Shown: positions 6,505-32,000, counted from the stretch's first letter. The stretch: DNA of 32,000 nucleotides from Candidatus Electronema halotolerans (GCA_942493095.1 OW818675.1:840001-872000), one strand, 5' to 3'. A program made the numbers and translations. Notes: generated by a model from the letters alone, not told the origin.

Positions 6505-6684
6505 ATATCAAACCAAGGCGCCCCGGAGTGTCATTGTGACACAATGAATTGTAATTCATGCAAGACTGGTGAATTGTCATAACCCAGGGCGCCCCGGAGT
6601 GTCATTGTGACAAATAATACTCTCACCTGCCATAGTCTATACATGAACGTCATAACCCAGGGCGCCCCGGAGTGTCATTGTGAC
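6505..6684. CRISPR. Orphan mini-CRISPR array (3 repeats, 2 spacers)
   Basis: The 36-bp repeat GTCATAACCCAGGGCGCCCCGGAGTGTCATTGTGAC is identical at 6576-6611 and 6649-6684. The copy at 6505-6540 is 30/36 identical, with all 6 mismatches in its first 12 nt. The unique spacers are 35 bp (6541-6575) and 37 bp (6612-6648). No cas gene is present in the window. Confidence 0.7.
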
Positions 6685-7005
6685 TCTGCCTCTTTTTATA
6701 CCCGTAAATTCAGCTTCCTGTCAATACCATTTTGTAGTACCTCCCCTTCCAGAGCCTGTTTCACCGCCATTTTGCAGGAGGTACTACATTGTGTTGGTTT
6801 TGCCAAATAATGACGCAGATTCAACAAGATAATTCAACAGCGAAAAAGTCGCTCAACCATTTGATCTTAAAAGATTTTTATCTGATTTTACAAGATTTTT
6901 CCCAAAAAACGCTGTTCAGCCCGCTCAAAGGGGTAAAAATAAGGGTTCCTCGAAAAATACAACATCCATTCTGCTGCATTTGTTTTGTTATTTTTTATTT
7001 TAATA

Positions 7006-7033
7006 TTGAAATTTCAGTCTATTATGTTATAAT
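7006..7033 (+). promoter_or_regulatory. sigma70-like promoter of the IS transposase
   Basis: TTGAAA (7006-7011), 16-nt spacer, TATAAT (7028-7033), about 40 nt upstream of the transposase ATG. Confidence 0.5.
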
Positions 7034-7072
7034 TTCGGCATCAATTCAACTCATGCTGCCGGAGATGCACAG

Positions 7073-8086: not shown

Positions 8087-8335
8087 GATTTAAAAAAAGA
8101 AACGCATTCAGGAACATATTTCAACGGAAGTTTGCTCAAAATAAATAAAAAACAGGAAATAACAATTTATGTATTTGAAATTTTCAACTGTCAAAGACAC
8201 TATTGATAAGCTGAAAAAACTTTATCTCGAATTTTTCGAGGTTCCCATAAGCAAAAAACGACCTGTAACTGAAAAAAAGCACCGTAACTGCATGGAACCA
8301 AAAACGATTTTGCATTTTTTTCAAAGCCGCTCTTT

Positions 8336-12560: not shown

Positions 12561-12883
12561 TTTCAGGGCTATTTTAAGAAGGCGTGAGATGATTGCTGAC
12601 TGCGTCTGAGGCTGACAACAGGATACAGCAAGAAAAGAGAGGATGCAATGCAGTCAGCCATGCAGGTTTTGCCGAGGCAGCTGCCGCCCTGCTGCTTCTC
12701 AGCCCATTCCAGCATACCTACAGCGATTCATCATCTCGTATTTCGAGGAATCATTCTCCAGCCAACGCAAGCATTCGCTCAATCATCAGCTCACCTCATG
12801 GAACATATTCATCTTGCTCAGACATCCCAAAGTCTTAGGTTCGGGAATCTTCTCCTTCCTGCCATGTCGTTATGAAAAAAAAT

Positions 12884-13247
12884 GGGGCGGACTGTAAGCC
12901 GAATCCTGTTCCTGCCAAAGCAGGCCATGATCATTTGACTGGGATGCCGGTCGCCCGGCACCTCGTGCAACCTACCCGGAAACTTTGGACGGGCAGCCCT
13001 CAAGCGTTTCCCTATTTGGTCTTGCACCCGGCGGGGTTTGCCATGCCCTTTGTGTCGCCACAAAGGCGGTAAGCTCTTACCTTGCCATTTCAACCTTGCC
13101 TGTGAGCAGTCGCCTGCTCCATCGGCGGTGTCTTTTCTGTGGCACTTTCCCCCGATTGCCCGGAGTTCCTGTTAGGAACCGCCGCGCCCTGCGGTGTTCG
13201 GACTTTCCTCTCCGGCAGCAAGGCCGGAGCGATCATGCGTCCGCCCC
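12884..13247 (-). ncRNA. rnpB: RNase P RNA, bacterial type A
   Basis: The minus strand carries GGAGAGGAAAGTCCGAACACC (P4 5' strand), GGTAAGAGC, CAAGACCAAATAGGGAA and ACAGGATTCGGCTTACAG (P4 3' strand). A P1 helix forms between GGGGCGGAC (13247-13239) and GTCCGCCCC (12892-12884). A T-run follows the 3' end. Confidence 0.9.
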
Positions 13248-13257
13248 AAAACTTGTG

Positions 13258-15481: not shown

Positions 15482-15558
15482 TGGTGGGCCTGCCTGGACT
15501 CGAACCAGGGACCGACCGGTTATGAGCCGGTGGCTCTAGCCAACTGAGCTACAGGCCC
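15482..15558 (-). tRNA. tRNA with CAU anticodon (elongator Met type; tRNA-Ile2/lysidine not excluded)
   Basis: The reverse complement GGGCCTGTAGCTCAGTTGGCTAGAGCCACCGGCTCATAACCGGTCGGTCCCTGGTTCGAGTCCAGGCAGGCCCACCA folds as a cloverleaf. The anticodon loop is CTCATAA, the 1:72 pair is G:C (so not an initiator), and CCA is encoded. Confidence 0.9.
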
Positions 15559-15946: not shown

Positions 15947-16414
15947 ATGAAAAAGATGGGCATAGAAAAGATGATTACTGCGCATAAAACAAGAAAGGTT
16001 ATTATTATCGCAACTGCGAGTGTGCAAATTATGACTGCTGCCTGTCTCCAAGCTGCTGAACCATGCCGTCCAGACGGGTTCTGTCCGCTGCCTAACAAAG
16101 AGGCGGATATGAAAGCTGCTCTTCGTGTTGAAACAAAAAGGGCAGCTCTGAAGAATATGTTGAAAAATCAATTTGATCGCTGCGACACCTTTGTCAGCGA
16201 AAAGCTGACTGCAACTTTGGGCCAGATGAATGTGCTGCGGGAGCAGATTATTCTCAAGGCCCTGGAAACAGGGCTTCTCCTTCAGCTTCCTGACATAGTG
16301 CGGGAGGTTGTGCGGAAGAAAGGGGATGAGGGCCAGCAGCTCTGCTGCGGCGCGATGTATTCGAGCCAGTACTTGTCTTTCAGCAGAACCAATTGTATTT
16401 CATCAGAATCGTGA
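15947..16414 (+). CDS. hypothetical secreted protein
   Basis: GGAGG at 15941-15945. Candidate starts are ATG 15947 and ATG 15956, the latter with better spacing. A hydrophobic signal-like segment (VIIIATASVQIMTAACLQAAEP) is present. I recognise no family. Confidence 0.5.
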   Translation: MKKMGIEKMITAHKTRKVIIIATASVQIMTAACLQAAEPCRPDGFCPLPNKEADMKAALRVETKRAALKNMLKNQFDRCDTFVSEKLTATLGQMNVLREQIILKALETGLLLQLPDIVREVVRKKGDEGQQLCCGAMYSSQYLSFSRTNCISSES

Positions 16415-16432
16415 TATTATAAGCTCAACCCG

Positions 16433-16483
16433 ATACCCCGGCAGGTTTACTCCTCCTTTTTTTTCCTGCCGGGGTATTTTTTT
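16433..16483. terminator. hairpin repeat copy 1 (terminator between convergent genes)
   Basis: ATACCCCGGCAGG / CCTGCCGGGGTAT stem, loop TTTACTCCTCCTTTTTTTT, followed by a T-run. Confidence 0.6.
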
Positions 16484-16522
16484 AAAGCTGGTTTCAAGCC
16501 AGTGGTGAATTTGTTCAAACCT

Positions 16523-16569
16523 GATGCTCCGGCAGGTTTTACTCCTCCTTTTTTTCCTGTCGGAGCATC
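16523..16569. repeat. hairpin repeat copy 2
   Basis: GATGCTCCGGCAGG / CCTGTCGGAGCATC stem with nearly the same loop as copy 1 (TTTTACTCCTCCTTTTTTT). Confidence 0.55.
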
Positions 16570-16644
16570 TGTTTTCTCCTTTGTTTTCCTAAGTATTTCA
16601 ATTTTCCCAAACAAACAGCCGCATTCCGTCCTTGCACGTGAAGA

Positions 16645-17340
16645 TCAGACGGAAATGCCGAATATTTTGCCCACTGCCGCAGTCAGCAGCATGGCCAAGG
16701 TGCCCCAGAAGCAAACCCGCAGCGCGCCCCGCAGTGGTGACGCGCCTCCGGCAAGCGCCGCAGTCGCACCAAGTCCGGCCAGCAGAACTATGGCCAGCAT
16801 TGGAACAAACCAGAGCAGCATAGCCCTTGGCACGATTGCCGCTGCTGTCACAGGTGCTGCGCCGCCAATCGTAAAAGAGGCCGCCGACCAGAAAGCTGCC
16901 TGCAGCGGCTGGGCGCTCAGTTCCGAAGTGATGCCAATCTCATCCCGCGCATGAGCCTCCAAGGCATCGTGCTCCATAAGCTGTCGGGCCACTTCTTCGG
17001 CCAAGGCCGCATCCAAGCCCCGCGCCACGTAAATAGCTGTCAGTTCCCGGTGCTCCTCCTCATGATAGTGCTCCAGCGCATGGGCCTCCATCTGCAAATC
17101 CGCCAGTTCGGTGTCTTCCTGTGATTTCACGGACACATATTCGCCAGCAGCCATGGACATGGCCCCAGCAGTCAGGCCGGCTGCTCCGGCCAGCATGATT
17201 TGGGTCTGATCAGAACCGGCAAAGGCGACCCCGACCAGCAGGCTGGCAATGGAGACAATGCCGTCATTGGCGCCGAGCACAGCAGCCCGAATCCAGCCGG
17301 AACGGTGGATGCGGTGATGTTCAGAGCAATGAGCACTCAT
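16645..17340 (-). CDS. VIT1/CCC1 family iron/manganese transporter
   Basis: Family signature WIRAAVLGANDGIVSIASLLVGVA, a central acidic helical region and C-terminal TM helices. Confidence 0.85.
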   Translation of the reverse strand: MSAHCSEHHRIHRSGWIRAAVLGANDGIVSIASLLVGVAFAGSDQTQIMLAGAAGLTAGAMSMAAGEYVSVKSQEDTELADLQMEAHALEHYHEEEHRELTAIYVARGLDAALAEEVARQLMEHDALEAHARDEIGITSELSAQPLQAAFWSAASFTIGGAAPVTAAAIVPRAMLLWFVPMLAIVLLAGLGATAALAGGASPLRGALRVCFWGTLAMLLTAAVGKIFGISV

Positions 17341-17395
17341 AGGGGGCGATATGAAAAATAGAAAAGTCGATCAGTAGAACAGCCTGAAAATACTG

Positions 17396-18736
17396 TCATT
17401 CTTCTCGCGGCTCCTGCACTTTGGCCTCCAGCAGCTCTTTACTGAACGGCTCCAGATTGCTGCCGACTGCGGCCAGCAGTTGACTTTCCATCTGATGACA
17501 GGCGACAACCGCCTGCGCCAGCCTGCCATGCGTGGCAGTCAGGTCCCGCTGGGCCTCGTTGAGCCGAGTCAGCGAAGCCGCGCCTGCCTCGTATTCGCTT
17601 TTAGCCAATTTTCGGTTCTCCTCCACCAAGGCCACAGTGTCCTTTTGGAGCTGCACCTGCTGGCGGGCCGCAGCCAGCTTGGTCAGTTCTTGCCGCACCT
17701 CAGCGGCAATGCTGTTGCGCAGGGCGGCCCGACTGTAGATGGCCTCGCGCTTGGCCTGCCGAGCCGCAACTGCCGCCGCTTCCACAGCCCCGCCTGAGTA
17801 CAGATTCCAGCTCATGCTCAGAGTCAGGGTGCTGCCAAAGTCATCGGTTTCAGGAAACAGTTTATTCTGACTGCTGCCGCCGACCTGCCCCTGCACTTTG
17901 ACCTTGGGCGCATCATCTGTCTCAGCCAGCCGCACCGCCGCTTCCGCCGCCTTGATCTGCATGGTCAATTTCTGATAATCAGGCCGTTTCTGCAAGGCTT
18001 GACTGATCAAGGCCTCCGCATTCTTCTGCACAGCCGGACCGCAGCTATTGTCCAAATCAGCCAAATCAGGCAATGCGTCATCCTCAATGCCGAGCAAAGC
18101 GGCCAGACCGCTGCGGGCTGCCGCATGGTCGCGCTGGCCGGTGAGCACGCTGTTTTTGGCTGTATTGACCTGCACTTTGATGTTGAGCACATCGCCCCAG
18201 GAGCCTGCGCCAGCATCAAAGCGATGCTGGGCATCAGAAAGCTGCTGCTCGTAAAATTTCTGATCCGCGTCAGCAATGTCAATCGAGGCTTTGGCCAGCT
18301 GGGCATTGAAGAAGGCATCCGCGACCGAGGAAAGCAGCAGCCGCTGGCTGTCCAATTTGCCCTCAACCGACGCGCTTTCACTGTGCTTGGCCTGCAATTC
18401 CTGAAACTTGCGGGCATAGCCGTCAAAGAGCAGCCACGAGGCTTGCAGGCCAAGCTGACTGTTTTTGCCCGTTGAATCAGAGACCGGCCCGCTGTCCACT
18501 TGATACGACAGGCCAAAGGAGCCAATCGCATCCACACTGGGCTGCCAGGCCGCTGCCGCCTGTTTCACTTTGGCTTTGGCCTGCTCAATCCGGGCTTGAG
18601 CCGCGCCAATGCTGGGATTGCCCTGCAAGGCGATCTGCTGGACCTCCCGCAGGTCAATGGTCTTGGGCGGTGTTGCGCCTGGGGCCGGACTGCATGCCAG
18701 ACCAAGCAACAGCAGAGCAAGGGACAGTTTTTTCAT
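17396..18736 (-). CDS. TolC-family outer membrane efflux protein
   Basis: Start set at the ATG at 18734-18736 (MKKLSLALLLLGLACSP signal). The protein has the two-repeat TolC/OEP architecture rich in A/Q/L coiled segments. Its start overlaps the upstream stop as ATGA. Confidence 0.85.
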   Translation of the reverse strand: MKKLSLALLLLGLACSPAPGATPPKTIDLREVQQIALQGNPSIGAAQARIEQAKAKVKQAAAAWQPSVDAIGSFGLSYQVDSGPVSDSTGKNSQLGLQASWLLFDGYARKFQELQAKHSESASVEGKLDSQRLLLSSVADAFFNAQLAKASIDIADADQKFYEQQLSDAQHRFDAGAGSWGDVLNIKVQVNTAKNSVLTGQRDHAAARSGLAALLGIEDDALPDLADLDNSCGPAVQKNAEALISQALQKRPDYQKLTMQIKAAEAAVRLAETDDAPKVKVQGQVGGSSQNKLFPETDDFGSTLTLSMSWNLYSGGAVEAAAVAARQAKREAIYSRAALRNSIAAEVRQELTKLAAARQQVQLQKDTVALVEENRKLAKSEYEAGAASLTRLNEAQRDLTATHGRLAQAVVACHQMESQLLAAVGSNLEPFSKELLEAKVQEPREE

Positions 18737-19746
18737 CGCTTTTCCTGCGGCCCGATGGACGGGCATTCTCTTGGCGGCCCGGCAGGCCGTGGGGGAGGAG
18801 GCGGGGGAAGAGTATTCACTTGAGCATCTGTGAGCCTTTTTTCCGGCAGCAGCTTCTGCTCAATGATCTCCGAGACAGTGCGGCTTTTTTCCCCCTGCGG
18901 ATCAACGCGGTGGAGGAAGTCGAGATAGGCAAGAAAGTCTTGCAGCTCATGTGGCGAGCTGTGGTTGACAATACCATAAACACCGGAACGCATGGAGCTG
19001 AAAACGTTTTCCGCCGCCTGCGCTTCCCTCATGAAATAGTGGGTCAGCCATTTCCGCTCAATGCCATTATACATGCCGACGCTGAGATAGTCATTCCTGC
19101 CCTTGCTTGGCTCCATGTCCGGCTCAAAGCGGCCCGGCTCGCCGTAGTTGGCAAAGCCGGAGCAGGTGTCATAGATGATCGCGTCGGGCAGCGCATTTTT
19201 GCGGCCCTCATCATTCATGCAGCCGGATTTGACCGCAGGATTGAGCCGCCGCAGTTTGGCGGTTAAATCAGTCAAGGTGCCGTAATAGGTTTCATCACCA
19301 AAACAAGCTTGAAAGTCATGGCCACCCGCCCTCTTCCGCTCTGCCTCGGCTTCAGACCGGGGCAGCGCGGAATAGCCGTCCCAGTTGCCATGCCCGACGC
19401 TATGATGATGCGCAGCGATTTCATGACCGCTCTTTTTCCAGCGTTCCAGCGCGGCGGCCCGCTCTTTGTCTGCCAAGAGATAGTCTGCCCACTGTGGCGC
19501 GAACATGAGGGTGAGCTTGATATCGTATTCATCAGCCTTGGCAATCATCTTCGTGAGGATGCGGTATGATTCCTCAGTGAAGAGGCGGTTCTGCTCATGA
19601 TTGAACGGCTCGTTGTGGATGGCGATAAAGTACCAAGGAATGCTGGTCTTCTTCTCCTGCGGCTCCGCTGCGCCGCAGCAGGTTGCCACTGTCATGAGGG
19701 CGAGGCCGACAAGAGCTGCCCATTTTTCTTTTGTCCAGATATTCAT
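18733..19746 (-). CDS. hypothetical exported protein, tentatively polysaccharide-deacetylase-like, with proline-rich C-terminus
   Basis: Signal peptide (ALVGLALMTVATCCGAAEP). His-rich motifs IAIHNEP and HEIAAHHHSVGH suggest a metal-dependent hydrolase. Translationally coupled on both sides. The functional call is weak. Confidence 0.55.
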   Translation of the reverse strand: MNIWTKEKWAALVGLALMTVATCCGAAEPQEKKTSIPWYFIAIHNEPFNHEQNRLFTEESYRILTKMIAKADEYDIKLTLMFAPQWADYLLADKERAAALERWKKSGHEIAAHHHSVGHGNWDGYSALPRSEAEAERKRAGGHDFQACFGDETYYGTLTDLTAKLRRLNPAVKSGCMNDEGRKNALPDAIIYDTCSGFANYGEPGRFEPDMEPSKGRNDYLSVGMYNGIERKWLTHYFMREAQAAENVFSSMRSGVYGIVNHSSPHELQDFLAYLDFLHRVDPQGEKSRTVSEIIEQKLLPEKRLTDAQVNTLPPPPPPRPAGPPRECPSIGPQEKR

Positions 19747-19880
19747 TGATTTGTGTCAGAGCAGGTTCCGCCCTCCGGGCTGTTGCCGCCGCATTGGCCG
19801 ATGAGATTATGAGGCCCGCAGGCGGCAATGAAAAAGGCAAGGGCGGCGGCGCAGAACAGCAGTTTAAGCATGGTTTTCAT
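19743..19880 (-). CDS. small lipoprotein (45 aa), absent from the ORF track
   Basis: My translation is MKTMLKLLFCAAALAFFIAACGPHNLIGQCGGNSPEGGTCSDTNQ. GGAGGAGAAC lies directly upstream. The lipobox is FIAAC. The stop overlaps the next start as ATGA. Confidence 0.55.
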   Translation of the reverse strand: MKTMLKLLFCAAALAFFIAACGPHNLIGQCGGNSPEGGTCSDTNQ

Positions 19881-19936
19881 GTTCTCCTCCTTGAGTTGTG
19901 GTCAGCAGGAATAGCGCGGCTGGTGTCGTTTGTTTC

Positions 19937-19964
19937 ACTATAGAACTGCTGCCGTGCTTGTCAA
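19937..19964 (-). promoter_or_regulatory. sigma70-like promoter for the lipoprotein/deacetylase-like/TolC operon
   Basis: The minus strand reads TTGACA, a 16-nt spacer (AGCACGGCAGCAGTTC), then TATAGT. It sits about 55 nt upstream of the small lipoprotein ATG. Confidence 0.5.
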
Positions 19965-20116
19965 GCGCAAAGGGCTGCGACGCAGGAGAATCAAAGCGCA
20001 GCGGGCCGCGAGTTTGACAACCTTGCGAATAAGGATGGTCTCCTCTTGAGCGCGGCTGAATAATTGTTTATCCTTCTGTGTGTGTCAACTGGTTATCGGC
20101 AAAGAAGGAGGAGAAT

Positions 20117-20188
20117 ATGGCTGAACTTGCGAAAGCCGGTGATTTCTGTCCGAACCGTGCCCGTGCAGGCGTTCGGTGTTTTCCATGA
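20117..20188 (+). CDS. 23-codon upstream ORF coupled to mnmA
   Basis: ATG at 20117 preceded by AAGAAGGAGGAG. It encodes MAELAKAGDFCPNRARAGVRCFP. The TGA stop overlaps the mnmA ATG at 20185 as ATGA. Confidence 0.35.
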   Translation: MAELAKAGDFCPNRARAGVRCFP

Positions 20189-21198
20189 AGACTGTCGGCA
20201 TTGCCCTGAGCGGCGGGGTGGATTCCACCACTGCCGCTGCTCTATTGCTCAAGCAGGGCCTGACAGTGGAAGGCTTTTTCATGCTCCTGCTGCCGGAGAG
20301 CGAAAAACAGGTCGGCAAAGTTCAGCTTGTTGCTGACCAGCTCGGCATTGCCCTGCATCTTGTTGATCTGCGCCAGCAGTTCCAAGAGCAGATCATCGCC
20401 GCCTTTGCCGCTGCCTATCAGCAGGGCCTGACTCCCAATCCCTGCGTGGTTTGCAACGAGCTGATCAAAGGCGGCCTGCTCATGGAGGCGATGCTTGCCC
20501 ACGGCATGGAGGCGATGGCCACTGGCCATTATGCGCAGATCAGAAACGGCAGGCTCTGCCGGGGCAGCGATCCCAGCAAAGATCAATCCTATTTCCTCTG
20601 CCGCCTTGCTGCTGATCAGCTCGCCCGGCTCATCCTGCCACTCGGCGCGTGGCGCAAGGAAGATGTTTTCGCTCAAGCGCGGGCATTGGGCTTCCAGCAT
20701 TTTGACGGCAGCGAGAGCCAAGATGTCTGCTTTTTGGCCGGGCAGACCTTAGCTGCTTTTCTTGCCGAGCAAGGCGTGGCCAGCCGCAGCGGCGAAATCG
20801 TGACAGCGGACGGCAGGATTTTGGGAGAGCACCAAGGCTGCTGGCAATACACAGTCGGGCAGCGGCGGGGCTTGGGCCTTCCTGATGCAACTCCGTGGTA
20901 TGTGATCGCACTTGATGCGCAGCGCAATCAAGTGATCGTCGGCAAAAATGAGGAGCTGTTCCAGCGCGGGCTGCTCCTGACGGATCTGCGTTGGCAAATT
21001 GCGCCGCCGGAACAGTGGCAGGGCTTGGTTCAGCTTCGTTCACGCCACCGGGCGGCAGAGGCCCAAGTCATGCCTGCGGCCCAGGACTGCTGGCGGGTCT
21101 GCTTTGCCGAGCCGCAGCGGGCGATCACGCCGGGCCAGTTCGCGGTCTTGTATGAAAATGACGCTGTGGCTGGTTCAGGTGTGATCAGGCAGGCATGA
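20185..21198 (+). CDS. mnmA: tRNA 2-thiouridine(34) synthase
   Basis: PP-loop motif (IALSGGVDSTTAA), CVVCN and MATGHYA, with MnmA family similarity throughout. The alternative GTG start at 20176 has no RBS. Confidence 0.9.
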   Translation: MKTVGIALSGGVDSTTAAALLLKQGLTVEGFFMLLLPESEKQVGKVQLVADQLGIALHLVDLRQQFQEQIIAAFAAAYQQGLTPNPCVVCNELIKGGLLMEAMLAHGMEAMATGHYAQIRNGRLCRGSDPSKDQSYFLCRLAADQLARLILPLGAWRKEDVFAQARALGFQHFDGSESQDVCFLAGQTLAAFLAEQGVASRSGEIVTADGRILGEHQGCWQYTVGQRRGLGLPDATPWYVIALDAQRNQVIVGKNEELFQRGLLLTDLRWQIAPPEQWQGLVQLRSRHRAAEAQVMPAAQDCWRVCFAEPQRAITPGQFAVLYENDAVAGSGVIRQA

Positions 21199-21291: not shown

Positions 21292-22467
21292 ATGGACAAC
21301 AAGGCATCTGATAGCGGTATTATTACCGAATTTCTCAAAATGGAGGCAGCGGGTGGCATCCTGCTCATGGCGGCAATGGTGCTGGCCATCATCAGTGCCA
21401 ACAGCTTTCTCTCTCCGTTGTATGACGGCCTTTTTTCCGCTGAGATACTCGGCCTTTCCGTGACCACATGGATCAACGACGGCCCGATGGCGGTCTTTTT
21501 TTTCTTAGTTGGCTTGGAGCTGAAACGGGAATTTCTCGACGGCGAGCTGTCAGATCGAAAAAAGGTCATGCTGCCGGTGATCGGCGCGGTCGGTGGAATG
21601 CTCTTTCCCGCCCTGATTTATGTGCTTTTCAACTGGGGCGATGACAAAGCCGTGCATGGCTGGGCCATTCCCGCCGCCACAGACATCGCCTTTGCCTTGG
21701 GCGTGCTCAGTCTGCTCGGCCCCAAGGTGCCGAACGCGCTGAAAGTCTTTCTCACCTCGCTGGCGATTTTTGACGACATGGGCGCAGTGCTGATCATCGC
21801 CTTGTTCTACACCGCCAAAATTTCCGTCCTTGCCTTGGCATTTGCCGCCCTCTTGGTGCTGGTGCTGGCCGCTCTCAACAGCTTGAATGTGACTAAGAAA
21901 ATACCCTATATCGCGGTCGGCCTGCTCCTCTGGTTCGCCACGCTGAAATCCGGGGTGCATGCCACTGTTGCCGGCGTGGTGCTGGCCATGTTCATTCCTC
22001 TGAAGGGCAAAAATGAAGCCGAAGCTTCACCGCTGAAAAGTCTGGAGCATGACCTGCATTCCTTTGTCGCCTTCATCATTCTGCCGATTTTCGCCTTTGC
22101 CAATTCCGGCATTGACCTGCGCGGCATGGGCATGGCGCAGGTGTTTGACAGTGTGCCGGTCGGCGTGGCTCTGGGCCTGTTTTTTGGCAAGCAGGCCGGA
22201 ATTTTTGCGGTCTGCTGGCTGGCAGTCAAGTTCGGCCTGGCCCAGCTGCCCAAGGAGGTGAACTGGACCAATCTCTACGGAGTCTGCGCCCTCTGCGGCA
22301 TCGGCTTCACCATGAGTCTGTTCGTCGGCTCCTTGGCCTTTCCAGGCGAGCAGCCCTTTGATGAACGCATCGGCATTATTGCCGGTTCCCTGCTTTCCGG
22401 CCTTGTCGGCTATGCTGTCCTGCATTTTTCCAAAGACGGCAGGAACGCCTTGGCAAACCCGGCCTGA
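21292..22467 (+). CDS. nhaA: Na+/H+ antiporter NhaA
   Basis: AAGGAGGAG RBS. NhaA motifs are present: WINDGPMAVFFFLVGLELKRE, AIPAATDIAFALG, LAIFDDMGAV. Confidence 0.92.
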   Translation: MDNKASDSGIITEFLKMEAAGGILLMAAMVLAIISANSFLSPLYDGLFSAEILGLSVTTWINDGPMAVFFFLVGLELKREFLDGELSDRKKVMLPVIGAVGGMLFPALIYVLFNWGDDKAVHGWAIPAATDIAFALGVLSLLGPKVPNALKVFLTSLAIFDDMGAVLIIALFYTAKISVLALAFAALLVLVLAALNSLNVTKKIPYIAVGLLLWFATLKSGVHATVAGVVLAMFIPLKGKNEAEASPLKSLEHDLHSFVAFIILPIFAFANSGIDLRGMGMAQVFDSVPVGVALGLFFGKQAGIFAVCWLAVKFGLAQLPKEVNWTNLYGVCALCGIGFTMSLFVGSLAFPGEQPFDERIGIIAGSLLSGLVGYAVLHFSKDGRNALANPA

Positions 22468-24347: not shown

Positions 24348-25496
24348 TCATCCTGATGCGGTGCGGCTTTTTCGCAACGCAGCCAAGGTCTGCATTGCAG
24401 TCCGCTGCCACGTGAATGCTTCAGCCCAAGCCCTGCCCAGTTCAGCCCGGCGGTTGCGCTCCTGCGCAGACAACCGCAGCAAATCTTTGATTTTGTCAGC
24501 CAGCAGCTCCGGCTCCGGCGCATCAACATAACACGCTGCCGCACCGCCAACTTCCGGCAGCGAAGCCGCCTTCACTGTCACCACTGGCAGCCCGGCCAGC
24601 AAGGCCTCAAGCACGGGCAGGCCAAATCCCTCATAGCTCGACGGAAGAACAAAGACTGCCGCAGCCTGATACAGCGTCCGCAATTCCTCTTCCGTCAGTC
24701 CATGCAGGCGCAGCACCCGCTCCGGGCTGCTGATCTTGAGCAGGCTTTTTCTGACCGCCTCCTCGCCACGCCGCGCCTTGCCGACCATAACTAACTGATG
24801 CGGCATTTCGTCTTGCAGCAGCGCAACAGCATCAATTAACTTATCAATATTTTTATGCGGATAGCTGTGCGCCACGCAGAGCAGGAACCGAGGTTGGACA
24901 TGCAGGCGGCCCAGAATCTGTTCCGTTTGCTCTGGTGCCAGCCGATGTTGGGCAAAATTGTTGCTCACGCCCAGCAGCACAGCATGAACTTTTTCCGGCG
25001 GAGCAAAACCGTATTTGATCACCTCCTGCCGGGAGAACTCGGAGATGGTCAGCACAGTTTGACAGCGGCTACAGGCTGTCCTGACCAAGATATCCAAGAC
25101 AGTGCGCTCCAGCCAGCTCATGTCTTGAGGATAGCTTTTATATTGCAGATCACAGACCGTCACGGCCTGCGGCGAAAAGCAGACTGCCGGAGCCGTGTAA
25201 CCCGGTGACCAGAGCACATCAACCGCTGCTTTACGGGCCGCAAAAGGAAGCAGGAATTGCTCGGCAAGAATCCGCACAGGCCGCACAGCCGCCTTGCAGG
25301 GAATTTGCTGCAATTCGACCTGCGGAAACGCGGCTAAGTCCGTGCGCAGAAGTTGGTCGTTCTCCTTGTTGGTGAACAGAACCAGCGTGTCATTTGCAGC
25401 CAGCTCCGCCATAGCCTTGACAGTTTCACGCAAATAAACTTCTGTGCCGCCCACATCACCGGGCACAAGAAACAGGGTGTTGATGCCTATGCGCAT
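24348..25496 (-). CDS. glycosyltransferase family 4 (GT-B fold)
   Basis: MRIGINTLFLVPGDVGGTEVY N-terminus and a C-terminal PSSYEGFGLPVLEALLAGLPVV motif. Confidence 0.85.
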   Translation of the reverse strand: MRIGINTLFLVPGDVGGTEVYLRETVKAMAELAANDTLVLFTNKENDQLLRTDLAAFPQVELQQIPCKAAVRPVRILAEQFLLPFAARKAAVDVLWSPGYTAPAVCFSPQAVTVCDLQYKSYPQDMSWLERTVLDILVRTACSRCQTVLTISEFSRQEVIKYGFAPPEKVHAVLLGVSNNFAQHRLAPEQTEQILGRLHVQPRFLLCVAHSYPHKNIDKLIDAVALLQDEMPHQLVMVGKARRGEEAVRKSLLKISSPERVLRLHGLTEEELRTLYQAAAVFVLPSSYEGFGLPVLEALLAGLPVVTVKAASLPEVGGAAACYVDAPEPELLADKIKDLLRLSAQERNRRAELGRAWAEAFTWQRTAMQTLAALRKSRTASG

Positions 25497-26781: not shown

Positions 26782-26810
26782 TTGACTTTGCTGCATTTCC
26801 TTTTTATGCT
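26782..26810 (+). promoter_or_regulatory. sigma70-like promoter candidate for the REC-HK/Hsp70 operon
   Basis: TTGACT (26782-26787), 17-nt spacer, TATGCT (26805-26810). Confidence 0.35.
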
Positions 26811-26862: not shown

Positions 26863-27927
26863 ATGCCCATGAAACTGCTTATTGCTGATGACGAACTATC
26901 AACCAGAGTTTTTCTCCGGCACTGCGCCGCCAGATGGGGCTATGAACTTGTCGAGGCTTCAGACGGCTTGGAAGCTTTGTCCATGCTGCGCGAAGCAGAC
27001 CCGCCCCGGATTGCGGTGCTGGACTGGATGATGCCCGGCTTGGACGGCGTGGAAATTTGCTCCCGGCTCAATGCTGAGGACAATGGCCCGCTGATCTACA
27101 CCATCCTGCTCACTGGCAGGAACGACAAGGAGGACGTGATCCATGCCTTGGATCATGGCGCGCACGATTTTCTCAGCAAACCCGTGCATATCGGCGAGCT
27201 GCAAAGCCGGATCGCAGTTGGCCGGCGGCTGGTCGAGGCCCATGACCGCCTGCTGGAGCTGGACCGGCTCAAAGAACGTTTTCTCCGCATTGCCGCTCAT
27301 GACCTCCGCAACCCGCTCGGCTACATCATCACCATGAGCGAGATGCTCACAGACCGTGATTTTGTTGAAGTCCGCCAAGAGATGGACAGCCATCTGCGCA
27401 GCATTCATGAGACCGCCTCGACCATGCAAAATTTGATCAACGATCTGCTCGACTTGGCGGCAGTCTGGGAAGGCAGGTTCACGATCAGCAGAAAACCAGC
27501 CTTGCTGCATGAGATAGTCCGGCAGGCCGTGGCCGAGCGGCGGCCTGCGGCGGCGGACCGGCAGCTGCGGTTAGTCGAGCGGCTGGCTGAGGTGCCGCCG
27601 GTCAGTTGCGACCCGGATCGCATTCAGCAGGCGATTGACCGGCTGCTGACCAATGCCTTCAAACTTGCCCCTTCCGCCTCAACGGTCACAGTGAGCGCGG
27701 AGCCGGAAGGAAGCAGCGTCCGGGTGGCAGTGTCTGATCAGGGGCCGCGCCGGAACAGCAGGGAGCTGGCCGCCTTTTCCGCCGCCGCTCCGTCCGCAGA
27801 CGGCAGGGACAGCAATCTCAGTCTGACCGTGGTCAAAAAAATCATTGAGCTGCATCAGGGCCGGGTCCAGGCGGAACAGCAGGCTGGCGGCGGCAGCGTC
27901 TTCAGCTTCACCCTGCCTTTGACCTGA
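26863..27927 (+). CDS. response-regulator receiver fused to histidine kinase core (HisKA plus degenerate HATPase)
   Basis: REC domain (LIADDE..., phospho-acceptor context AVLDWMMPGLDG, SKP). H-box FLRIAAHDLRNPL. N-box LLTNAFK. G1 reads SDQGPR and the G2 position reads DSNLSL instead of GxGLGL. No TM segment or sensor domain. Confidence 0.8.
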   Translation: MPMKLLIADDELSTRVFLRHCAARWGYELVEASDGLEALSMLREADPPRIAVLDWMMPGLDGVEICSRLNAEDNGPLIYTILLTGRNDKEDVIHALDHGAHDFLSKPVHIGELQSRIAVGRRLVEAHDRLLELDRLKERFLRIAAHDLRNPLGYIITMSEMLTDRDFVEVRQEMDSHLRSIHETASTMQNLINDLLDLAAVWEGRFTISRKPALLHEIVRQAVAERRPAAADRQLRLVERLAEVPPVSCDPDRIQQAIDRLLTNAFKLAPSASTVTVSAEPEGSSVRVAVSDQGPRRNSRELAAFSAAAPSADGRDSNLSLTVVKKIIELHQGRVQAEQQAGGGSVFSFTLPLT

Positions 27928-27951
27928 AACACCAGCAGGCAGCAGAGCATC

Positions 27952-30267
27952 ATGAAAAAATCCATAGGCATTGATCTGGGAACCACCAATTCCGCCGCCG
28001 CAATCAGAAAAGTGAGCGTTGAGGTGCTGCGGAACGCTGAAGGCGAATACATCACCCCGTCCTGCGTCACGGTGCGCAAGCGCCTGATGCGGAAGCCGGA
28101 TTTCATTGTTGGCCGTCATGCCTTGGAATGGCTGCGGCAGGAGCCGGAAAACACGGTGACAACGGTCAAACGGCTGATTGGCCGCAGCTTTCAGGATGCA
28201 GAGGTGCAGGAGCTGATCGTCAGCCAGCGTTTCCGCTGCCGTCTGGCCCCGCATTCGCACGGCTCGGAAAACAGTCTCTCCATTCTTGCCGGAGGCCGCG
28301 AGTTCACGCCCGAGGAAATTTCCGCCAAGATTCTGGCTAAAATCAAGGCGGATGCGGAGCATGCTCTGGGTGACGCAGTGGATTCGGCAGTCATCACTGT
28401 GCCTGCCTATTTCAATGACAAGCAGAAGCATGCCACCCGCACTGCCGCTGCCTTGGCCGGGCTGAAGGTCAGCCGCCTGCTGCCTGAACCCACAGCAGCG
28501 GCCATCTCCTTCGGCGTTGACAAGGTTGCCGAAGATGAGGGCAAGACTGTGCTGGTCTTTGATTTTGGCGGCGGCACCTTGGATCTGTCCGTGCTCGCCA
28601 TCAGCGGCGGCCAGATCATTGAAATGGGCAAGGGCGGCGACATGTGGCTGGGCGGCGAGGACATTGACAGCCTGATCATCAATCATGCCCTCCAAGAAGC
28701 AGGCGGCGAGGAGGGTGCCGGACGCATCTATGCCCTGCTGGCCCGGCAGGATGAGACGGCCCGGAACCGCTTCATGGCTGAACTGAAGACTGCGGCGGAA
28801 AAGGCCAAGATCGCCTTGACTGAGCAGGAGGATGCCTGCCTTGAGGTGCTGGGGTTGCTGACCGATGAGGACGGCGATGCAGTGGATATTGAGGTTGAAC
28901 TGCGCCGTTCGCAGCTGGAGGCCATGCTGGCTGCCAAACGCGACGCAGTGCTCAAGCTGCTGCGCCGCCTGCTGGCCGAGCTGCATTTCACGCCTGAGCT
29001 GATTGACCAAGTCCTGATGGTGGGCGGCAGCTCCTGTATCCCCTGTTTTTGCAGAGATTTGCAGGAGGAATTCGGAGAGGGGAAAGTCCTGCTCCATGAG
29101 CGGCCCATGCTGGCGGTTGCTGAAGGCGCGGCCATCCTCAGTCATCGTCTGGCAGACACTCAAGAATGCCCTGGTTGTGGCAGTGAAGCCGGGCGCAACG
29201 ATGCCGCCTGTCCGCACTGCGGTTTTGATCTGGAAGCCTACACGGCAAAACAGGGCTTGGTAGATATTGTTCATGCGGCGGCCCATGATTATTTCATCCG
29301 GCTGGAAAATGATCAACGTTTTCTCATGGTCGAGAAAAACACGCCGCTGCCCTGCTCCAGCACTGAGATTTTCCAGCTCGTGGCAGCGGAGCAGGAGCTG
29401 GTGCATATAAAATTTTTCAATATTGTCAATGATAGGGAGGAAAGCATCGGCGACCTCTGGCTCGGCATTGACCGCGATGGTCAGGAAGAGAAGGAGGGCC
29501 GTGCGGACGAGCTGCCGCGTGTCGCAGTCACCTTGGATATTGATGAAAATAATTTGGTTTCGGTGCGGGCGGCCTTGGTCGGGCAGCCAGAGGTGAAGGT
29601 GGCAGGCACGCTCTCACGCGGCAAGGCGGATGAGAAGCTCTTCCTCAGCTTGGAGCGGACCATCAGCGAGGCAGATCAGAAGGGTTATTCCACCTACACG
29701 GTCACAGATCTGCTCAACCGGGCCAGAGCCATCATCCGTCTGATTCATCAGGTGGTTGACCCGGAAACCGGCAAGGTTGACGAGGAGCTGCGCCGCTCTG
29801 TGGAGGAAAAAATCAGCAAGGCCGTGCAGATAGCCCAAGACGAAGAAGCACCGCTGACCCGCATTTATTATGCGGAAAGCATGCTGGAAGATTACGGCAG
29901 GCTGATCAAACCGGATTTGGCGGCGCAGATGCAGAAAAAAATTGATTTGCTGCGCCAAGCGGACGAGGAAGGAACGTATGAGGAGACCATGCAGGCTATG
30001 GAAAATCTGGCCGACCTGCTGGAAGACCCAAGGCTGGAGCTGGTTCATGCCCTGACCCAGATTGAAAACGCCTGCGAAATCTGCTATCAGAGCGATCCGG
30101 GCCAGGCAAAGCGGTTCATGCGGGCGGCAGCGGACGTGCTCGCTTCAGCGGAAAGCGGCGGCGAGCTGCTGATGGATGAAGTGCTGGCAATCATGCCGGA
30201 AGTGGAGGAGGTGCTGGATCAGCACGCCCGCAGCACCCAGAAGATTTATCGGGACATCAGAAAATGA
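27952..30267 (+). CDS. atypical Hsp70-family ATPase with inserted zinc ribbon and long helical C-terminus
   Basis: The Hsp70 nucleotide-binding motifs are intact: IGIDLGTTNS, LPEPTAAAISFG, LVFDFGGGTLDLSVL, LGGEDID, VLMVGGSSCIP, AVAEGAAI. A CPGCG-x9-CPHCG zinc ribbon lies at 29167-29220. A DnaK-beta-domain-like segment follows (VAVTLDIDENNLVSVRA), then about 220 aa of helical sequence. Confidence 0.85.
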   Translation: MKKSIGIDLGTTNSAAAIRKVSVEVLRNAEGEYITPSCVTVRKRLMRKPDFIVGRHALEWLRQEPENTVTTVKRLIGRSFQDAEVQELIVSQRFRCRLAPHSHGSENSLSILAGGREFTPEEISAKILAKIKADAEHALGDAVDSAVITVPAYFNDKQKHATRTAAALAGLKVSRLLPEPTAAAISFGVDKVAEDEGKTVLVFDFGGGTLDLSVLAISGGQIIEMGKGGDMWLGGEDIDSLIINHALQEAGGEEGAGRIYALLARQDETARNRFMAELKTAAEKAKIALTEQEDACLEVLGLLTDEDGDAVDIEVELRRSQLEAMLAAKRDAVLKLLRRLLAELHFTPELIDQVLMVGGSSCIPCFCRDLQEEFGEGKVLLHERPMLAVAEGAAILSHRLADTQECPGCGSEAGRNDAACPHCGFDLEAYTAKQGLVDIVHAAAHDYFIRLENDQRFLMVEKNTPLPCSSTEIFQLVAAEQELVHIKFFNIVNDREESIGDLWLGIDRDGQEEKEGRADELPRVAVTLDIDENNLVSVRAALVGQPEVKVAGTLSRGKADEKLFLSLERTISEADQKGYSTYTVTDLLNRARAIIRLIHQVVDPETGKVDEELRRSVEEKISKAVQIAQDEEAPLTRIYYAESMLEDYGRLIKPDLAAQMQKKIDLLRQADEEGTYEETMQAMENLADLLEDPRLELVHALTQIENACEICYQSDPGQAKRFMRAAADVLASAESGGELLMDEVLAIMPEVEEVLDQHARSTQKIYRDIRK

Positions 30268-31370
30268 GCCAGAGCTGTTCCTGTCCAGTCTGCGGGCGGC
30301 AGGGGCTGCCCGCAGACTGCGCCAGCTGCCCGCAGTGCGATTCTGATTTGACCTGCTTTCAGGTGCTTGATTCCCTGTCCTCCAATAAGGCCGAGCAGAC
30401 GGGCCGCCGTTTTTCGTGGCGGGCGCTGCTGGCAGGGGCTGCCTTCCTCCTGCTGCTGGCAGTGCTGGCCGCAGTCTGGCAAAGCAAGGTGCCGGGACCG
30501 TTGCTGACAGCCTCCCAAGACCGCCAAGCTGCGCTGCCTGCTTCAGCTTCTGACGGCAAAATTCACATTGATGCCCAGATACGGATTCTCGATGACCGGC
30601 AGGAGCGGGAAAACCGCCAGCACCGAGCTGCTCAATCTGTTGCCATTGAAGAAAAAAAACAGGTTGACAAGCCTGCGCAGGAGGAGGTGCGGCAGATGGT
30701 GCCTGATGAGGAATCTTCTGATGCTCCGGCAGCGCAGGAAACTGTTGCGCCTGCGCTGCCGGAGCAGACAGAACAGGCCGACAGTGACAGCAGCGTCCCG
30801 GAGCCGCTGCCAGTGGAATTGTCCGAGCCAGTTGCAAAAAAAGCTGTTGCTGCGGCATCTGCGCCTGATCAGCAAGCTGCCGAGCCTGCACCAGCACCGC
30901 CGCCTGAGCTGCCAGTGCTGCAAGGCCGCCGCAAGCGGGCAGTGCGGACCCGGGCAGTGTCCGGCCTGCGCGAAGCCGCTGCAAAATCGGCAAACCAGAA
31001 GAACAGCAAAAGCACCTTGGTTTATCACGCCCAAAACGGCGAGACGGTCTGGGAGCTGGCTGAACGGTTTTACGGCGAGGGCAAATACTATCCTCTGATC
31101 ATGGAGCTGAATCCGCAGGTCGTGCAAGGCCGCGTCCGGGGCAGCGACAAAGTCCGGCTCCTTGCTGACCGGCGGCAGGCCGCAGCCCTGTATCAGCGCA
31201 GCACCGAGCAGCGCGACGGCCTGCTGCTCTGGAAGCACAAGGTGCAGCCGGGCGAGACGTGGCAGTCCATCTATGCCCGCTTCTTCCCGCCCAAATACTC
31301 CGGCATGGTTTTTTATCCCGGAGACCAGAAAGTGGTTCCCGGCAGCACGGTCAGGATTATTCTCCGTTGA
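30264..31370 (+). CDS. zinc ribbon / single-TM / Pro-Glu-Ala-rich linker / tandem LysM-like protein
   Basis: ATGA overlap with the Hsp70 gene. CPVCG-x9-CPQC at 30282-30338. TM segment ALLAGAAFLLLLAVLAAVW. The C-terminus carries two LysM-like units (YHAQNGETVWELAERFYG...; HKVQPGETWQSIYARFF...VPGSTVRI). Confidence 0.75.
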   Translation: MSQSCSCPVCGRQGLPADCASCPQCDSDLTCFQVLDSLSSNKAEQTGRRFSWRALLAGAAFLLLLAVLAAVWQSKVPGPLLTASQDRQAALPASASDGKIHIDAQIRILDDRQERENRQHRAAQSVAIEEKKQVDKPAQEEVRQMVPDEESSDAPAAQETVAPALPEQTEQADSDSSVPEPLPVELSEPVAKKAVAAASAPDQQAAEPAPAPPPELPVLQGRRKRAVRTRAVSGLREAAAKSANQKNSKSTLVYHAQNGETVWELAERFYGEGKYYPLIMELNPQVVQGRVRGSDKVRLLADRRQAAALYQRSTEQRDGLLLWKHKVQPGETWQSIYARFFPPKYSGMVFYPGDQKVVPGSTVRIILR

Positions 31371-31375
31371 AGGTG

Positions 31376-32000
31376 ATGGGACACACTTGTTTTTTCAGCC
31401 TGAAAGGGCTTTTTCATAAAAGACGGGCCGCCCAGCTTGAGGCGGAATGCCGACGGCTGCAGGAGGCTGCCGGGCAGGCTGAGGCGGCTGATGATCATCT
31501 CCGCGCTGCCGGGCTGCTGGAGCAAGTTCACACTCTCCGGCCTGAGAACGCGCTGCTCTTGCGGCTGGCCCGCTGCTGGCTGCGGGCCGGACAATGGCAG
31601 CAGGCTGCGGATGCCTACAGTGAGACAGGCTGTTCTGGGGCGGCAGATTGGTATGATGCCGGTTTCGCCTTGGCCAAGCTGGACCGCTTTGCGGTCTGTC
31701 TGCGCTGCTGGCGGCAGACCGGCTCAAGTCATCCAGCTTTTCTTGCCCAGCAGAAGCAGGTCAGCCTCCTGCTCCTTCAGGAACTGAGCCGCTGCTTGGA
31801 CGAGCAATCTTGGGCGCAGGAGGAGCAGGTCCGTGCTCTGCTGACCGAATTTTCCTTGACTGAACTGCCTGGCGGCCATGAGCTGCTGGCCCGTTGCGAC
31901 CGGGTGCGGCTGGCCCGGCTCTGGCAGGAAGACCGGCTGGAGGAGATCATGGCAATGGCGGCAGAGAACGATCTCAACCATCCGGCAGTGCTGGAAATTC
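31376..32000 (+). CDS. helical-repeat (TPR-like) protein, 3'-truncated by the window end
   Basis: My translation from the ATG at 31376 stays open to the window end (MGHTCFFSLKGLFHKRRAAQLEAECRRLQEAAGQAEAADDHLRAAGLLEQVH...). It starts 5 nt after the LysM gene stop. It is missing from the ORF track because no stop lies within the window. Confidence 0.6.
   Translation, partial: MGHTCFFSLKGLFHKRRAAQLEAECRRLQEAAGQAEAADDHLRAAGLLEQVHTLRPENALLLRLARCWLRAGQWQQAADAYSETGCSGAADWYDAGFALAKLDRFAVCLRCWRQTGSSHPAFLAQQKQVSLLLLQELSRCLDEQSWAQEEQVRALLTEFSLTELPGGHELLARCDRVRLARLWQEDRLEEIMAMAAENDLNHPAVLEI

Follow-up and report, generated by a model that had tools for sequence, protein, structure and literature searches.

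A conserved gene cassette around an atypical Hsp70 in Candidatus Electronema halotolerans and its relatives

Introduction

The mitochondrial presequence translocase-associated motor (PAM) consists of mtHsp70, Tim44, Pam18, Pam16 and Mge1, together with the zinc-finger escort protein Zim17/Hep1. In Escherichia coli, two systems with membrane-anchored J proteins are known: DjlA, which works with DnaK, and DjlB/DjlC, which work with HscC, an Hsp70 with a shortened lid and no known dedicated GrpE. Here we describe a gene cassette around an atypical Hsp70 that lies at one end of a stretch of 32,000 nucleotides from the cable bacterium Candidatus Electronema halotolerans (GCA_942493095.1 OW818675.1:840001-872000; this whole stretch is hereafter called the window), where a scan for open reading frames (ORFs) finds four co-oriented genes of the + strand within positions 26863-32000. 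The conserved part of the cassette encodes, in this order, the Hsp70, a bitopic membrane protein with a zinc ribbon and, usually, LysM units (the anchor), a large TPR-like protein, a small J-like protein and a GrpE-family factor. It is a real, conserved and hitherto undescribed Hsp70 system outside the DnaK and HscA equivalog families, and our literature search found no description of it. Recent reviews, one of which mentions HscC (PMC13580251), point to numerous DnaK-derived paralogues in complex bacteria that await characterisation of their partners and roles (PMC13580251, PMC11019930), and in Myxococcus xanthus one DnaK paralogue, SglK/MxDnaK2, is accompanied by an adjacent GrpE, GrpS (MXAN_6672) (PMC11019930).

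In its logic, the cassette seems closest to the mitochondrial motor, and close also to DjlA and DjlB/DjlC. With the motor it would share a membrane-tethered Hsp70, a dedicated GrpE-type factor, a J-like protein devoid of the HPD motif (Pam16 in mitochondria) and a zinc-binding module, a comparison that draws partly on PMC9695410. Tether, scaffold and zinc modules are, however, not homologous in the two cases, which leaves a functional resemblance only; neither a translocon nor an HPD-bearing J partner equivalent to Pam18 is found in the cassette. As for the E. coli systems, the common traits would be an Hsp70 brought to the inner membrane by a bitopic protein from a neighbouring gene, and the condition of specialised, non-housekeeping paralogues; their anchor, however, bears a true J domain with HPD, whereas that of the cassette bears a ribbon and its J-like protein is soluble and HPD-less.

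Measured against DnaK-DnaJ-GrpE, the cassette keeps the actin-like nucleotide-binding domain (NBD), the hydrophobic linker, the beta-sandwich substrate-binding domain (SBD), the helical lid, a GrpE-family factor and, probably, the J helices I-III in a small protein, but it differs in a ribbon placed between NBD and linker, in a lid of about twice the length with a basic tail, and in scores below the equivalog cut-off. Its J-like protein lacks the HPD loop, the Gly/Phe region and the zinc-finger and client-binding domains of DnaJ, and two obligate partners are added, the membrane anchor and the TPR-like scaffold. The resemblance to SglK/MxDnaK2 and GrpS, where a complex organism of deltaproteobacterial type likewise has a DnaK paralogue next to a GrpE of its own, holds at the general level of Hsp70, and we know of no zinc ribbon, anchor, TPR-like or J-like partners reported for SglK or StkA.

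Two further bacterial systems with Hsp70 proteins, the nearest operon types of this kind in the literature, were considered and rejected as identities of the cassette. The first were the GAP1-N2 GTPase/Hsp70/GrpE conflict systems, with a linked TRAFAC GTPase and a protein of FNIII repeats (Kaur et al. 2020, PMC7159879); the 10-kb flanks of the cassette hold no conserved gene beyond its own five. The second was the Hsp70-like CnuD of CoCoNuT, which is associated with McrB/McrC and has degenerate ATPase motifs (PMC11090510); in the cassette McrB/McrC neighbours are missing and the ATPase motifs are intact.

A conserved five-gene unit

The family was searched for in one genome per GTDB species (185,579) with an alignment, A1, of the family-specific C-terminal half of the Hsp70, and the cassette genes of the resulting loci were called by iterative hidden Markov model (HMM) searches on six-frame ORFs. 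The scan gave 80 loci, or species genomes, and 89 stretches were confirmed among the 185,579 species genomes. In virtually all of the 80 loci that are long enough, the genes for Hsp70, anchor, TPR-like protein, J-like protein and GrpE follow each other in this order on one strand, separated mostly by gaps of 0-10 nt or joined by 4-nt overlaps, and clustering of the flanking ORFs found no conserved gene family beyond these five within 10 kb. In a relative at 86% identity (L003) and in Desulfonema magnum (L004), for instance, the Hsp70 gene is followed by genes for the anchor, a TPR-like protein of 600-713 aa, a protein of 86-95 aa and GrpE. The original prediction had regarded the four genes of the window as one functional unit; this is supported for three of them, encoding the Hsp70, the anchor and the helical protein, which are syntenic across the 80 genomes, but the fourth, a receiver (REC) histidine kinase gene, is found in Electronema only, and neither a J-like nor a GrpE gene lies in the window.

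The carriers, relatives of sulfate reducers, belong mainly to Desulfobulbales, Desulfobacterales and Desulfatiglandales, with deeper relatives in metagenome-assembled genomes (MAGs) of Cloacimonadota and Oligoflexia, and full-length Hsp70 homologues of more than 50% identity occur in cable bacteria, in Desulfonema magnum and in many Desulfobacterales MAGs. When a profile of the C-terminal half of the Hsp70 was compared with 1.84 billion cluster representatives, it matched 242 clusters at E <=1e-3 and 50 at E <=1e-30, and the family is rare. Relative to L003, and listing Electronema, Electrothrix, Desulfocapsa and Desulfobacterales in this order, identities are 73/66/63/54% for the Hsp70, 63/56/49/42% for GrpE, 52/56/50/43% for the J-like protein, 47/38/36/26% for the TPR-like protein and 39/46/45/30% for the anchor. 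The five proteins have diverged in step with taxonomy, although at different rates, which fits co-inheritance as a mostly vertical unit.

Four distant variants help to delimit what is essential. A metagenome contig (L090) encodes an Hsp70 of 759 aa with the ribbon, a 170-aa anchor with zinc ribbon, transmembrane (TM) helix and one LysM, a TPR protein of 803 aa, a J-like protein of 104 aa and GrpE. The same five components appear in a Cloacimonadota MAG (L092), where the Hsp70 (784 aa) has the ribbon, the anchor (261 aa) combines zinc ribbon and TM helix with a periplasmic TPR, and the TPR and J-like proteins measure 733 and 115 aa. The Hsp70 has no ribbon in a second metagenome contig (L089; 722 aa), which encodes an anchor reduced to zinc ribbon and TM helix (122 aa), a helical protein of 327 aa, a J-like protein of 62 aa and GrpE, nor in an Oligoflexia MAG (L093; 725 aa), with an anchor of zinc ribbon, TM helix and coiled coil (173 aa), a helical protein of 364 aa and GrpE. 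In this last genome the J-like module apparently sits at the C-terminus of the helical protein (L093:2929-4023; hhalign E 5e-4, probability 30%), a fusion that is only suggestive but might connect scaffold and J-like protein in the Rosetta-stone sense, and the scaffold profile finds nothing in this 364-aa protein by hhalign (E 0.59). The invariant core thus comprises the Hsp70, the zinc-ribbon membrane anchor, a helical protein, the J-like module and GrpE, and LysM is what Desulfobacterota have in place of a replaceable outer domain. The co-occurrence of a zinc-ribbon Hsp70 with a ribbon-TM-LysM protein and a TPR protein recurs, but the variants from Cloacimonadota, from Oligoflexia and from the contig L089 lack the LysM, the last two also the ribbon of the Hsp70.

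A separate observation concerns eight cassette-bearing contigs (L021, L029, L032, L043, L050, L063, L077 and L084), labelled as Promethearchaeota (2.6 kb, coverage 0.29), Spirochaetaceae, Victivallales, Elusimicrobia and Kiritimatiellia. Their cassette proteins resemble those of L003 to the same degree as Desulfobacterales proteins do (the median identity of the Hsp70 is 53.5%, compared with 53.7% for Desulfobacterales), and either horizontal transfer or mis-binning could account for them.

The atypical Hsp70

The second gene of the window (27952-30267; like all cassette features below, on the + strand) encodes a protein of 771 aa that matches Pfam HSP70 (PF00012) with E 1.5e-95 over residues 5-401, and that has the features of the superfamily: an NBD with the catalytic Asp, Lys, Glu and Thr, a linker, a beta-sandwich SBD and a lid. 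The NBD (aa 1-401, 27952..29154) contains IGIDLGTTNS, the K of VKRLIGR, the E of PEPTAAA and DFGGGTLD, and in an alignment to E. coli DnaK (2kho, 1dkg) the phosphate-binding loops and the equivalents of K70, E171 and DxGGGT are conserved. Inserted between the NBD and the interdomain linker there is a zinc ribbon, CPGC-x10-CPHC (aa 403-428, 29158..29235), whose four Cys are all invariant across 69 homologues; the Pfam zinc-ribbon matches to residues 403-428 are all sub-threshold, and AlphaFold2 (AF2) predicts short strands at aa 403-414.

A linker-like GLVDIVH and the SBD follow (aa ~436-552, 29257..29607), as delimited by DnaK alignment, AF2 and Foldseek. The segment GLVDIVHAAAHDYFIRLEN matches, by eye, the DnaK linker and the first SBD strand, and HMMER aligns residues 459-563, as a second stretch, with DnaK 411-512 over the SBD, in which an acidic loop (510-517) has low model confidence. 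The helical lid is extended in the AF2 model, with nine helices in aa 559-760 (29626..30264), about twice the DnaK length, and the last residues form a basic tail that is conserved in the family, I-[YH]-[KR]-[DG]-I-x-[KR], of which I365, D368 and I369 (numbering of A1) are invariant in that alignment. The whole model has a predicted local distance difference test score (pLDDT) of 86.3 and a predicted TM-score (pTM) of 0.80, and its top Foldseek matches are full-length DnaK and BiP (E 2e-42, ~706 columns). Motifs and fold together indicate a protein competent both as an ATPase and in substrate binding.

The scores against NCBIfam equivalogs are about half the cut-offs: 318.6 bits against 648 and 310.9 against 822.55 for the DnaK models NF001413 and TIGR02350, and 256.6 against 708.55 and 257.8 against 620 for the HscA models TIGR01991 and NF003520. 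In a Desulfobulbaceae MAG, moreover, a canonical DnaK gene (L015:5866-7806, - strand; 1057 bits in NCBIfam) lies divergently only 1 kb from that of the atypical Hsp70. Because of these low scores and of this coexistence, the cassette protein can be classed as a paralogue and not as a replacement of DnaK. The original prediction of an Hsp70 that is neither a canonical DnaK nor HscA is thus borne out, and the HMM searches bear out the family assignment itself, leaving the ribbon below Pfam thresholds.

The membrane anchor

The gene for the anchor (30264-31370, 368 aa) overlaps the Hsp70 stop codon. At the N-terminus of the protein, the family conservation profile and the motif listing delimit a predicted cytoplasmic zinc ribbon, CPVC-x11-CPQC-DSDLTCF (aa 7-36, 30282..30371), by far the most conserved part of the anchor across orders and phyla, and kept in the distant variants L089, L090, L092 and L093. 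It resembles the ribbon of the Hsp70, as had been proposed: CPxC-x11-CPQC-D[AS]DLtCF in the anchor can be set beside CPxC-x10-CxxC-xFDL in the chaperone, with a spacing of x11 versus x10. From reading the sequence, a single TM helix is placed at aa ~54-72 (30423..30479), and since the basic stretch GRRFSWR precedes it, an N-in/C-out topology is implied, with the LysM units outside. Up to about aa 250 the protein continues as a low-complexity linker, the length of which varies widely and the alignment columns of which are poorly occupied.

Two LysM units occupy the C-terminal part, the first at aa ~252-299 (31017..31160), from the Pfam match on the last 125 aa, and the second at aa ~322-367 (31227..31364), where family profile positions 79-124 match the LysM repeats of LytE, P60, Ecp6, MltD and SafA. 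For the whole protein LysM (PF01476) stays sub-threshold (18.8 bits vs 20.9), but a scan restricted to the last 125 aa exceeds the gathering threshold (GA; 23.1 bits vs 20.9). LysM is also matched in 55 of 60 family members (best E 6e-15), and both halves of the family profile match solved repeats, those of LytE, P60, Ecp6, TsaP and MltD among them. The LysM-like units originally seen here, predicted to bind peptidoglycan, are therefore upheld, and a tether to the cell wall through them is plausible.

The anchor can be compared with LysM landmark proteins of Gram-negative bacteria, such as FimV/HubP and TsaP. In both cases a bitopic or periplasmic LysM protein would fix a machine of the cytoplasm or envelope to peptidoglycan, but the predicted topology of the cassette anchor is opposite to that of FimV, with LysM at the C-terminus outside the membrane, and its cytoplasmic part is just a ribbon of ~35 aa.

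The TPR-like protein

The last gene of the window (31367..32000) runs past its end, so that only the N-terminal third of a 605-aa product is encoded here; the sequence is identical to the NCBI protein P0123, annotated as 'tetratricopeptide repeat-containing protein [Candidatus Electronema halotolerans]'. In the family the protein measures 600-750 aa, and most members have an extra N-terminal TPR segment of ~100 aa that is missing in Electronema. Although Pfam TPR models score at or below threshold, an AF2 model built on a shallow multiple sequence alignment is nevertheless confident (pLDDT 91.1), with 31 helices in an all-alpha solenoid, which supports the helical-repeat protein anticipated from the window. 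Word-indexed protein searches retrieved only cable-bacterium relatives (15 with the single sequence, 21 with a 40-sequence profile), and NCBIfam gave nothing for this protein, and only sub-cut-off matches for the other three proteins of the window. The Foldseek neighbours are generic TPR superhelices (APC3, Cut9, Ski3, Naa15, Tom70) with E ~1e-5 and TM-scores <=0.2.

The combination of a TPR solenoid with an Hsp70 and a putative J-type module is shared with TPR co-chaperones and TPR-J proteins (Hop/Sti1, CHIP, Tom70, DNAJC3/P58IPK and DNAJC7), but the structural match is generic (TM-score <=0.2) and the cassette Hsp70 carries a basic tail (IYRDIRK) in place of EEVD.

The J-like protein and GrpE

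Just past the end of the window, contigs of the same organism (L085 and L086) carry a gene for a protein of 86 aa that overlaps the end of the TPR-like gene. Members of the family, of ~90 aa, conform to the consensus MNPYKILNI..A.K.EIIQAA..ALRERKYS.REIA.AQK.L.DP.SR and carry the motif L.RL.IFD behind it, at the C-terminus, and the HPD motif is present in none of the 64 cassette members (0/64). Pfam DnaJ (PF00226) gives sub-threshold matches to helix I in 8 of 49 members (best E 8.4e-5), and comparison of the family profile with nine J-domain sequences (hhalign probability 74%, E 2.8e-5) aligns helices I-III with the HPD loop deleted. Against PDB sequences the profile finds no significant J-domain chain, the top matches being designed coiled coils and DNAJC3 appearing at E 0.51. 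With moderate confidence, the protein can be called J-like; the zinc-finger domain and C-terminal domains of DnaJ are absent from it.

A short J protein with a partner-binding C-terminal extension has been described in Shewanella, AtcJ (PMC6715715). The J-like protein resembles it in its small size and in a conserved C-terminal tail that could dock a partner of the same operon, but AtcJ has a functional J domain with HPD.

The cassette GrpE passes Pfam PF01025 (44.9 bits in L003 and 38.2 bits in L004, vs 25.8), and scores 28 bits with the NCBIfam equivalog, whose cut-off is 137. In the window organism the J-like gene is followed by a GC-rich hairpin with a T-run and then by an unrelated ORF (L085:2573-2870), and in a relative at 95% (L087, 15263-16266, and L088) by an Lcl_C gene, whereas the 86% relative keeps a dedicated GrpE in the comparable region (L003:15281-16020). 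It looks as if the dedicated GrpE had been recently lost or relocated in the sublineage of the window. The statement that no J-domain or GrpE gene lies in the window is therefore literally true, but it reflects the position of the window end in the first case and, apparently, a recent loss in the second; the idea of an Hsp70 without J and GrpE partners has to be abandoned, as a J-like gene belongs to the cassette and most genomes have their own cassette GrpE.

The REC-histidine kinase

The first gene (26863-27927, 354 aa) matches Pfam Response_reg, HisKA and HATPase_c, all above GA, and encodes a soluble protein with no sensor or membrane segment; in orthologues the second ATG (26869) serves as the start codon. 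Both phospho-acceptors, D54 and H146, are invariant in the Electronema alignment. The ATP-lid region (27700-27927, aa ~290-354) reads DQGPRR or DQGPEL in the G1 box and LSL in the G2 box in the window, L087 and L003, versus DQGPGL and LGL in the sister Electronema kinases. Because the G1 and G2 boxes have decayed while D54 and H146 persist, the protein of the window sublineage may be a phosphotransfer, phosphatase or pseudo-kinase module rather than an autokinase.

It is only in the Electronema clade that this gene borders the one for the Hsp70 (the window, L001-L003, L005-L009 and L087/L088), and the family is present in at most 10 of the clustered loci. From this distribution, the kinase is best seen as a later regulatory accessory specific to Electronema, and the phosphorelay control by a core partner that was first envisaged is not supported for the family.

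Gene layout and neighbouring genes

A gap of 24 nt separates the stop of the kinase gene (27927) from the start of the Hsp70 gene (27952), and the Hsp70 stop and anchor start overlap as ATGA at 30264-30267. For the TPR-like gene two starts can be considered, TTG 31367, with a 4-nt overlap with the anchor gene stop, and ATG 31376; the former may be preferred because the NCBI protein P0123 starts with MKVMGHT. The layout originally given for the four genes is accordingly kept in its coordinates, 24-nt gap and ATGA overlap, but the 5-nt gap before the last gene is uncertain, TTG 31367 being a possible start. A promoter-like site, TTGACT-17-TATGCT (26782..26810, + strand), lies ~50 nt 5' of the kinase start, as a consensus match only; the same simple consensus scan gave 7 promoter-like sites in the cassette region, against 1.6 expected, and nothing between the cassette genes that convincingly resembles a terminator of the + strand.

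Several neighbours of the cassette in L003 and L004 were tried as additional conserved members and rejected: a ParA/MinD-like ATPase, FtsEX/M23/Ctp, CheB-like and Pfam RAMPs genes, none of which recurs. In L003 the region right after the cassette (16116-20977) encodes a MinD/ParA-like ATPase, an M23 peptidase, a Ctp-type S41 protease and, as their Pfam domains (ABC_tran; FtsX) suggest, FtsE and FtsX, a wall-hydrolase activation set whose adjacency is not kept in other loci. In Desulfonema magnum (L004: 100-3736, 18079-21242), genes matching Pfam RAMPs (CRISPR-associated) lie on one side of the cassette, and a CheB-like REC-methylesterase pair around a ParA-like ATPase on the other.

Further along the window, the gene of the family 4 glycosyltransferase that lies near the cassette (24348-25496, - strand) matches PF20706, 'Family 4 glycosyltransferase in conflict systems', with 57 bits (GA 26), and ordinary GT1/GT4 models score higher (92.9 bits). 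Upstream of the glycosyltransferase pair, the translations suggest an NhaA-type antiporter-like ORF (21292-22467) and the genes of ribosomal proteins L21 (23524-23892) and L27 (23948-24259). A class A bacterial RNase P RNA (12879-13248, - strand; 297 bits) and a tRNA gene (15485-15558, - strand) are also present, and the G+C content of positions 6001-9000 (0.42-0.49, vs ~0.58 elsewhere) may point to an island or foreign DNA.

Discussion

We give somewhat better than even chances to the reading that a specialised Hsp70 machine, complete in itself, works at the cytoplasmic face of the inner membrane, that it has a conserved core of five genes, and that the four genes in the window are the first of this machine. 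It starts from what is observed, the gene set and its order, the co-inheritance, the domain identities and the fold. In such a machine, the anchor would fix the assembly at the inner membrane and, in Desulfobacterota, to peptidoglycan through its two periplasmic LysM units, while its cytoplasmic zinc ribbon would serve as the docking element that recruits a complex of Hsp70 and scaffold to this wall-fixed site. The TPR-like solenoid could act as a platform, scaffold or adaptor. The HPD-less J-like protein might bridge scaffold and Hsp70, or regulate them, with no canonical triggering of hydrolysis; its C-terminal hydrophobic-acidic motif, L-x-R-L-x-I-F-D, is a candidate ligand for the TPR groove or for the SBD cleft. 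The short dedicated GrpE would reset the nucleotide state of the Hsp70, a task that in the window sublineage, devoid of a cassette GrpE, would fall to the housekeeping GrpE. The output may be the ATP-driven holding, remodelling or pulling of a putative client associated with the envelope, and in Electronema the REC-kinase was added upstream, probably as a regulatory input or output.

Several observations weigh against this picture. The contacts between subunits are deduced from co-occurrence alone. The J-like assignment is moderately supported and, in the absence of HPD, the protein may have no action on the ATPase. In L089 and L093 the Hsp70 has no zinc ribbon, and therefore the pairing of the two ribbons cannot be a universal docking mode; LysM is dispensable in the distant variants, and so the wall tether may be secondary. 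The TPR-like protein has no specific structural relative in Foldseek (TM-score <=0.2), and tblastn found no cassette GrpE in L085-L088, from the window organism and its 95% relative, in a search of the loci only.

A narrower version goes further, and we put it forward tentatively, as rather doubtful: a membrane-tethered Hsp70 motor, composed of a wall-fixed anchor, a TPR scaffold, an HPD-less J-like protein and a private GrpE, that would pull, extract or assemble an envelope protein or structure. If this were true, the motor would be, in function, a prokaryotic counterpart of the import motor of mitochondria, with an activation independent of the contact between HPD and NBD.

Among the rival explanations, the one that survives best, which we still find unlikely, is signalling across the envelope by chaperone titration. 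LysM would sense peptidoglycan or muropeptides and the Hsp70 would bind or release the anchor tail, the output being a regulatory switch with the REC-kinase as its readout in Electronema. Such titration has precedents in BiP on IRE1 and DnaK on sigma-32. Lineages have swapped the outer ligand-binding domain (LysM, TPR or none), as is typical of sensors, conservation in the anchor is highest in the cytoplasmic ribbon, and a sensor-less REC-HisKA-HATPase gene stands directly 5' in Electronema; this kinase is, however, confined to a single genus and is losing its ATP-lid motifs in the window sublineage, the cassette has no conserved output domain such as a transcription factor, and a scaffold of 600-750 aa with a J-like protein and GrpE exceeds the needs of a switch.

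We regard as distinctly improbable a regulator of exopolysaccharide, surface glycan or motility like SglK (with GrpS) and StkA in Myxococcus, which we take to be DnaK-type proteins of ordinary length, without zinc ribbon and long lid. The cassette of the window is, as predicted, divergent from a pair of glycosyltransferase genes, confirmed as families 2 (GT2) and 4 (GT4), those of L003 and L087 adjoin genes matching Pfam ABC transporter, Wzy_C, GT9 and GT2, and MxDnaK2 likewise has a dedicated adjacent GrpE (PMC11019930). The link to surface polysaccharide that had been drawn from the GT2/GT4 pair fails, however, on synteny: the pair adjoins the cassette in no other locus, including those of the 86% and 95% relatives, which have different envelope-glycan genes 5' of it, so that glycosyltransferase neighbours vary among close relatives and are absent from the other 70-odd loci, and nothing else in the cassette content is related to polysaccharides.

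Just as improbable is a role in conflict or anti-phage defence, with the Hsp70 as an NTP-driven switch like that of the Hsp70/GrpE GTPase systems or of CoCoNuT CnuD. It would agree with a self-contained cassette that occurs in variable genomic contexts, that is rare (89 stretches in 185,579 species genomes, 242 clusters in 1.84 billion representatives), that is present in MAGs labelled as other phyla and adjoins genes matching Pfam RAMPs in Desulfonema, and whose partner proteins evolve fast. But the identity of the Hsp70 tracks taxonomy, as expected for vertical inheritance, no PADLOC-DB 2.0 model matches any of the four proteins encoded in the window, and the cassette encodes no effector domain, be it a nuclease, a protease, a pore-former or another kind, and has neither a GTPase nor McrB beside it; its ATPase motifs are intact, unlike those of CnuD (PMC11090510). 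The defence role once left open thus finds no positive evidence. A plain stress operon, derived from DnaK/DnaJ/GrpE by duplication and flanked by chance neighbours, would be in line with the canonical fold and motifs of the Hsp70 and with the GrpE and J-like genes of the cassette, but is hardly credible given scores of half the DnaK equivalog cut-off, an invariant ribbon insert, a doubled lid, a J-like protein without HPD, zinc-finger and C-terminal domains, and anchor and scaffold genes whose positions are as conserved as that of the Hsp70.

We return, then, to a specialised Hsp70 machine at the inner membrane. Whatever its client, the cassette supplies one Hsp70 paralogue with a complete and conserved set of partners, that is, anchor, scaffold, J-like protein and exchange factor, and some of its carriers are cultivable (Desulfobacter latus, Desulfonema magnum and Desulfamplus magnetovallimortis); this family therefore opens the role of a bacterial Hsp70 paralogue to direct test. 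With a J-like partner devoid of HPD throughout, it would also offer a natural test of how the Hsp70 cycle can be driven, or restrained, without the canonical J-domain trigger. More speculatively, a wall-tethered chaperone might have a part in the construction of the elaborate periplasmic structures of cable bacteria.

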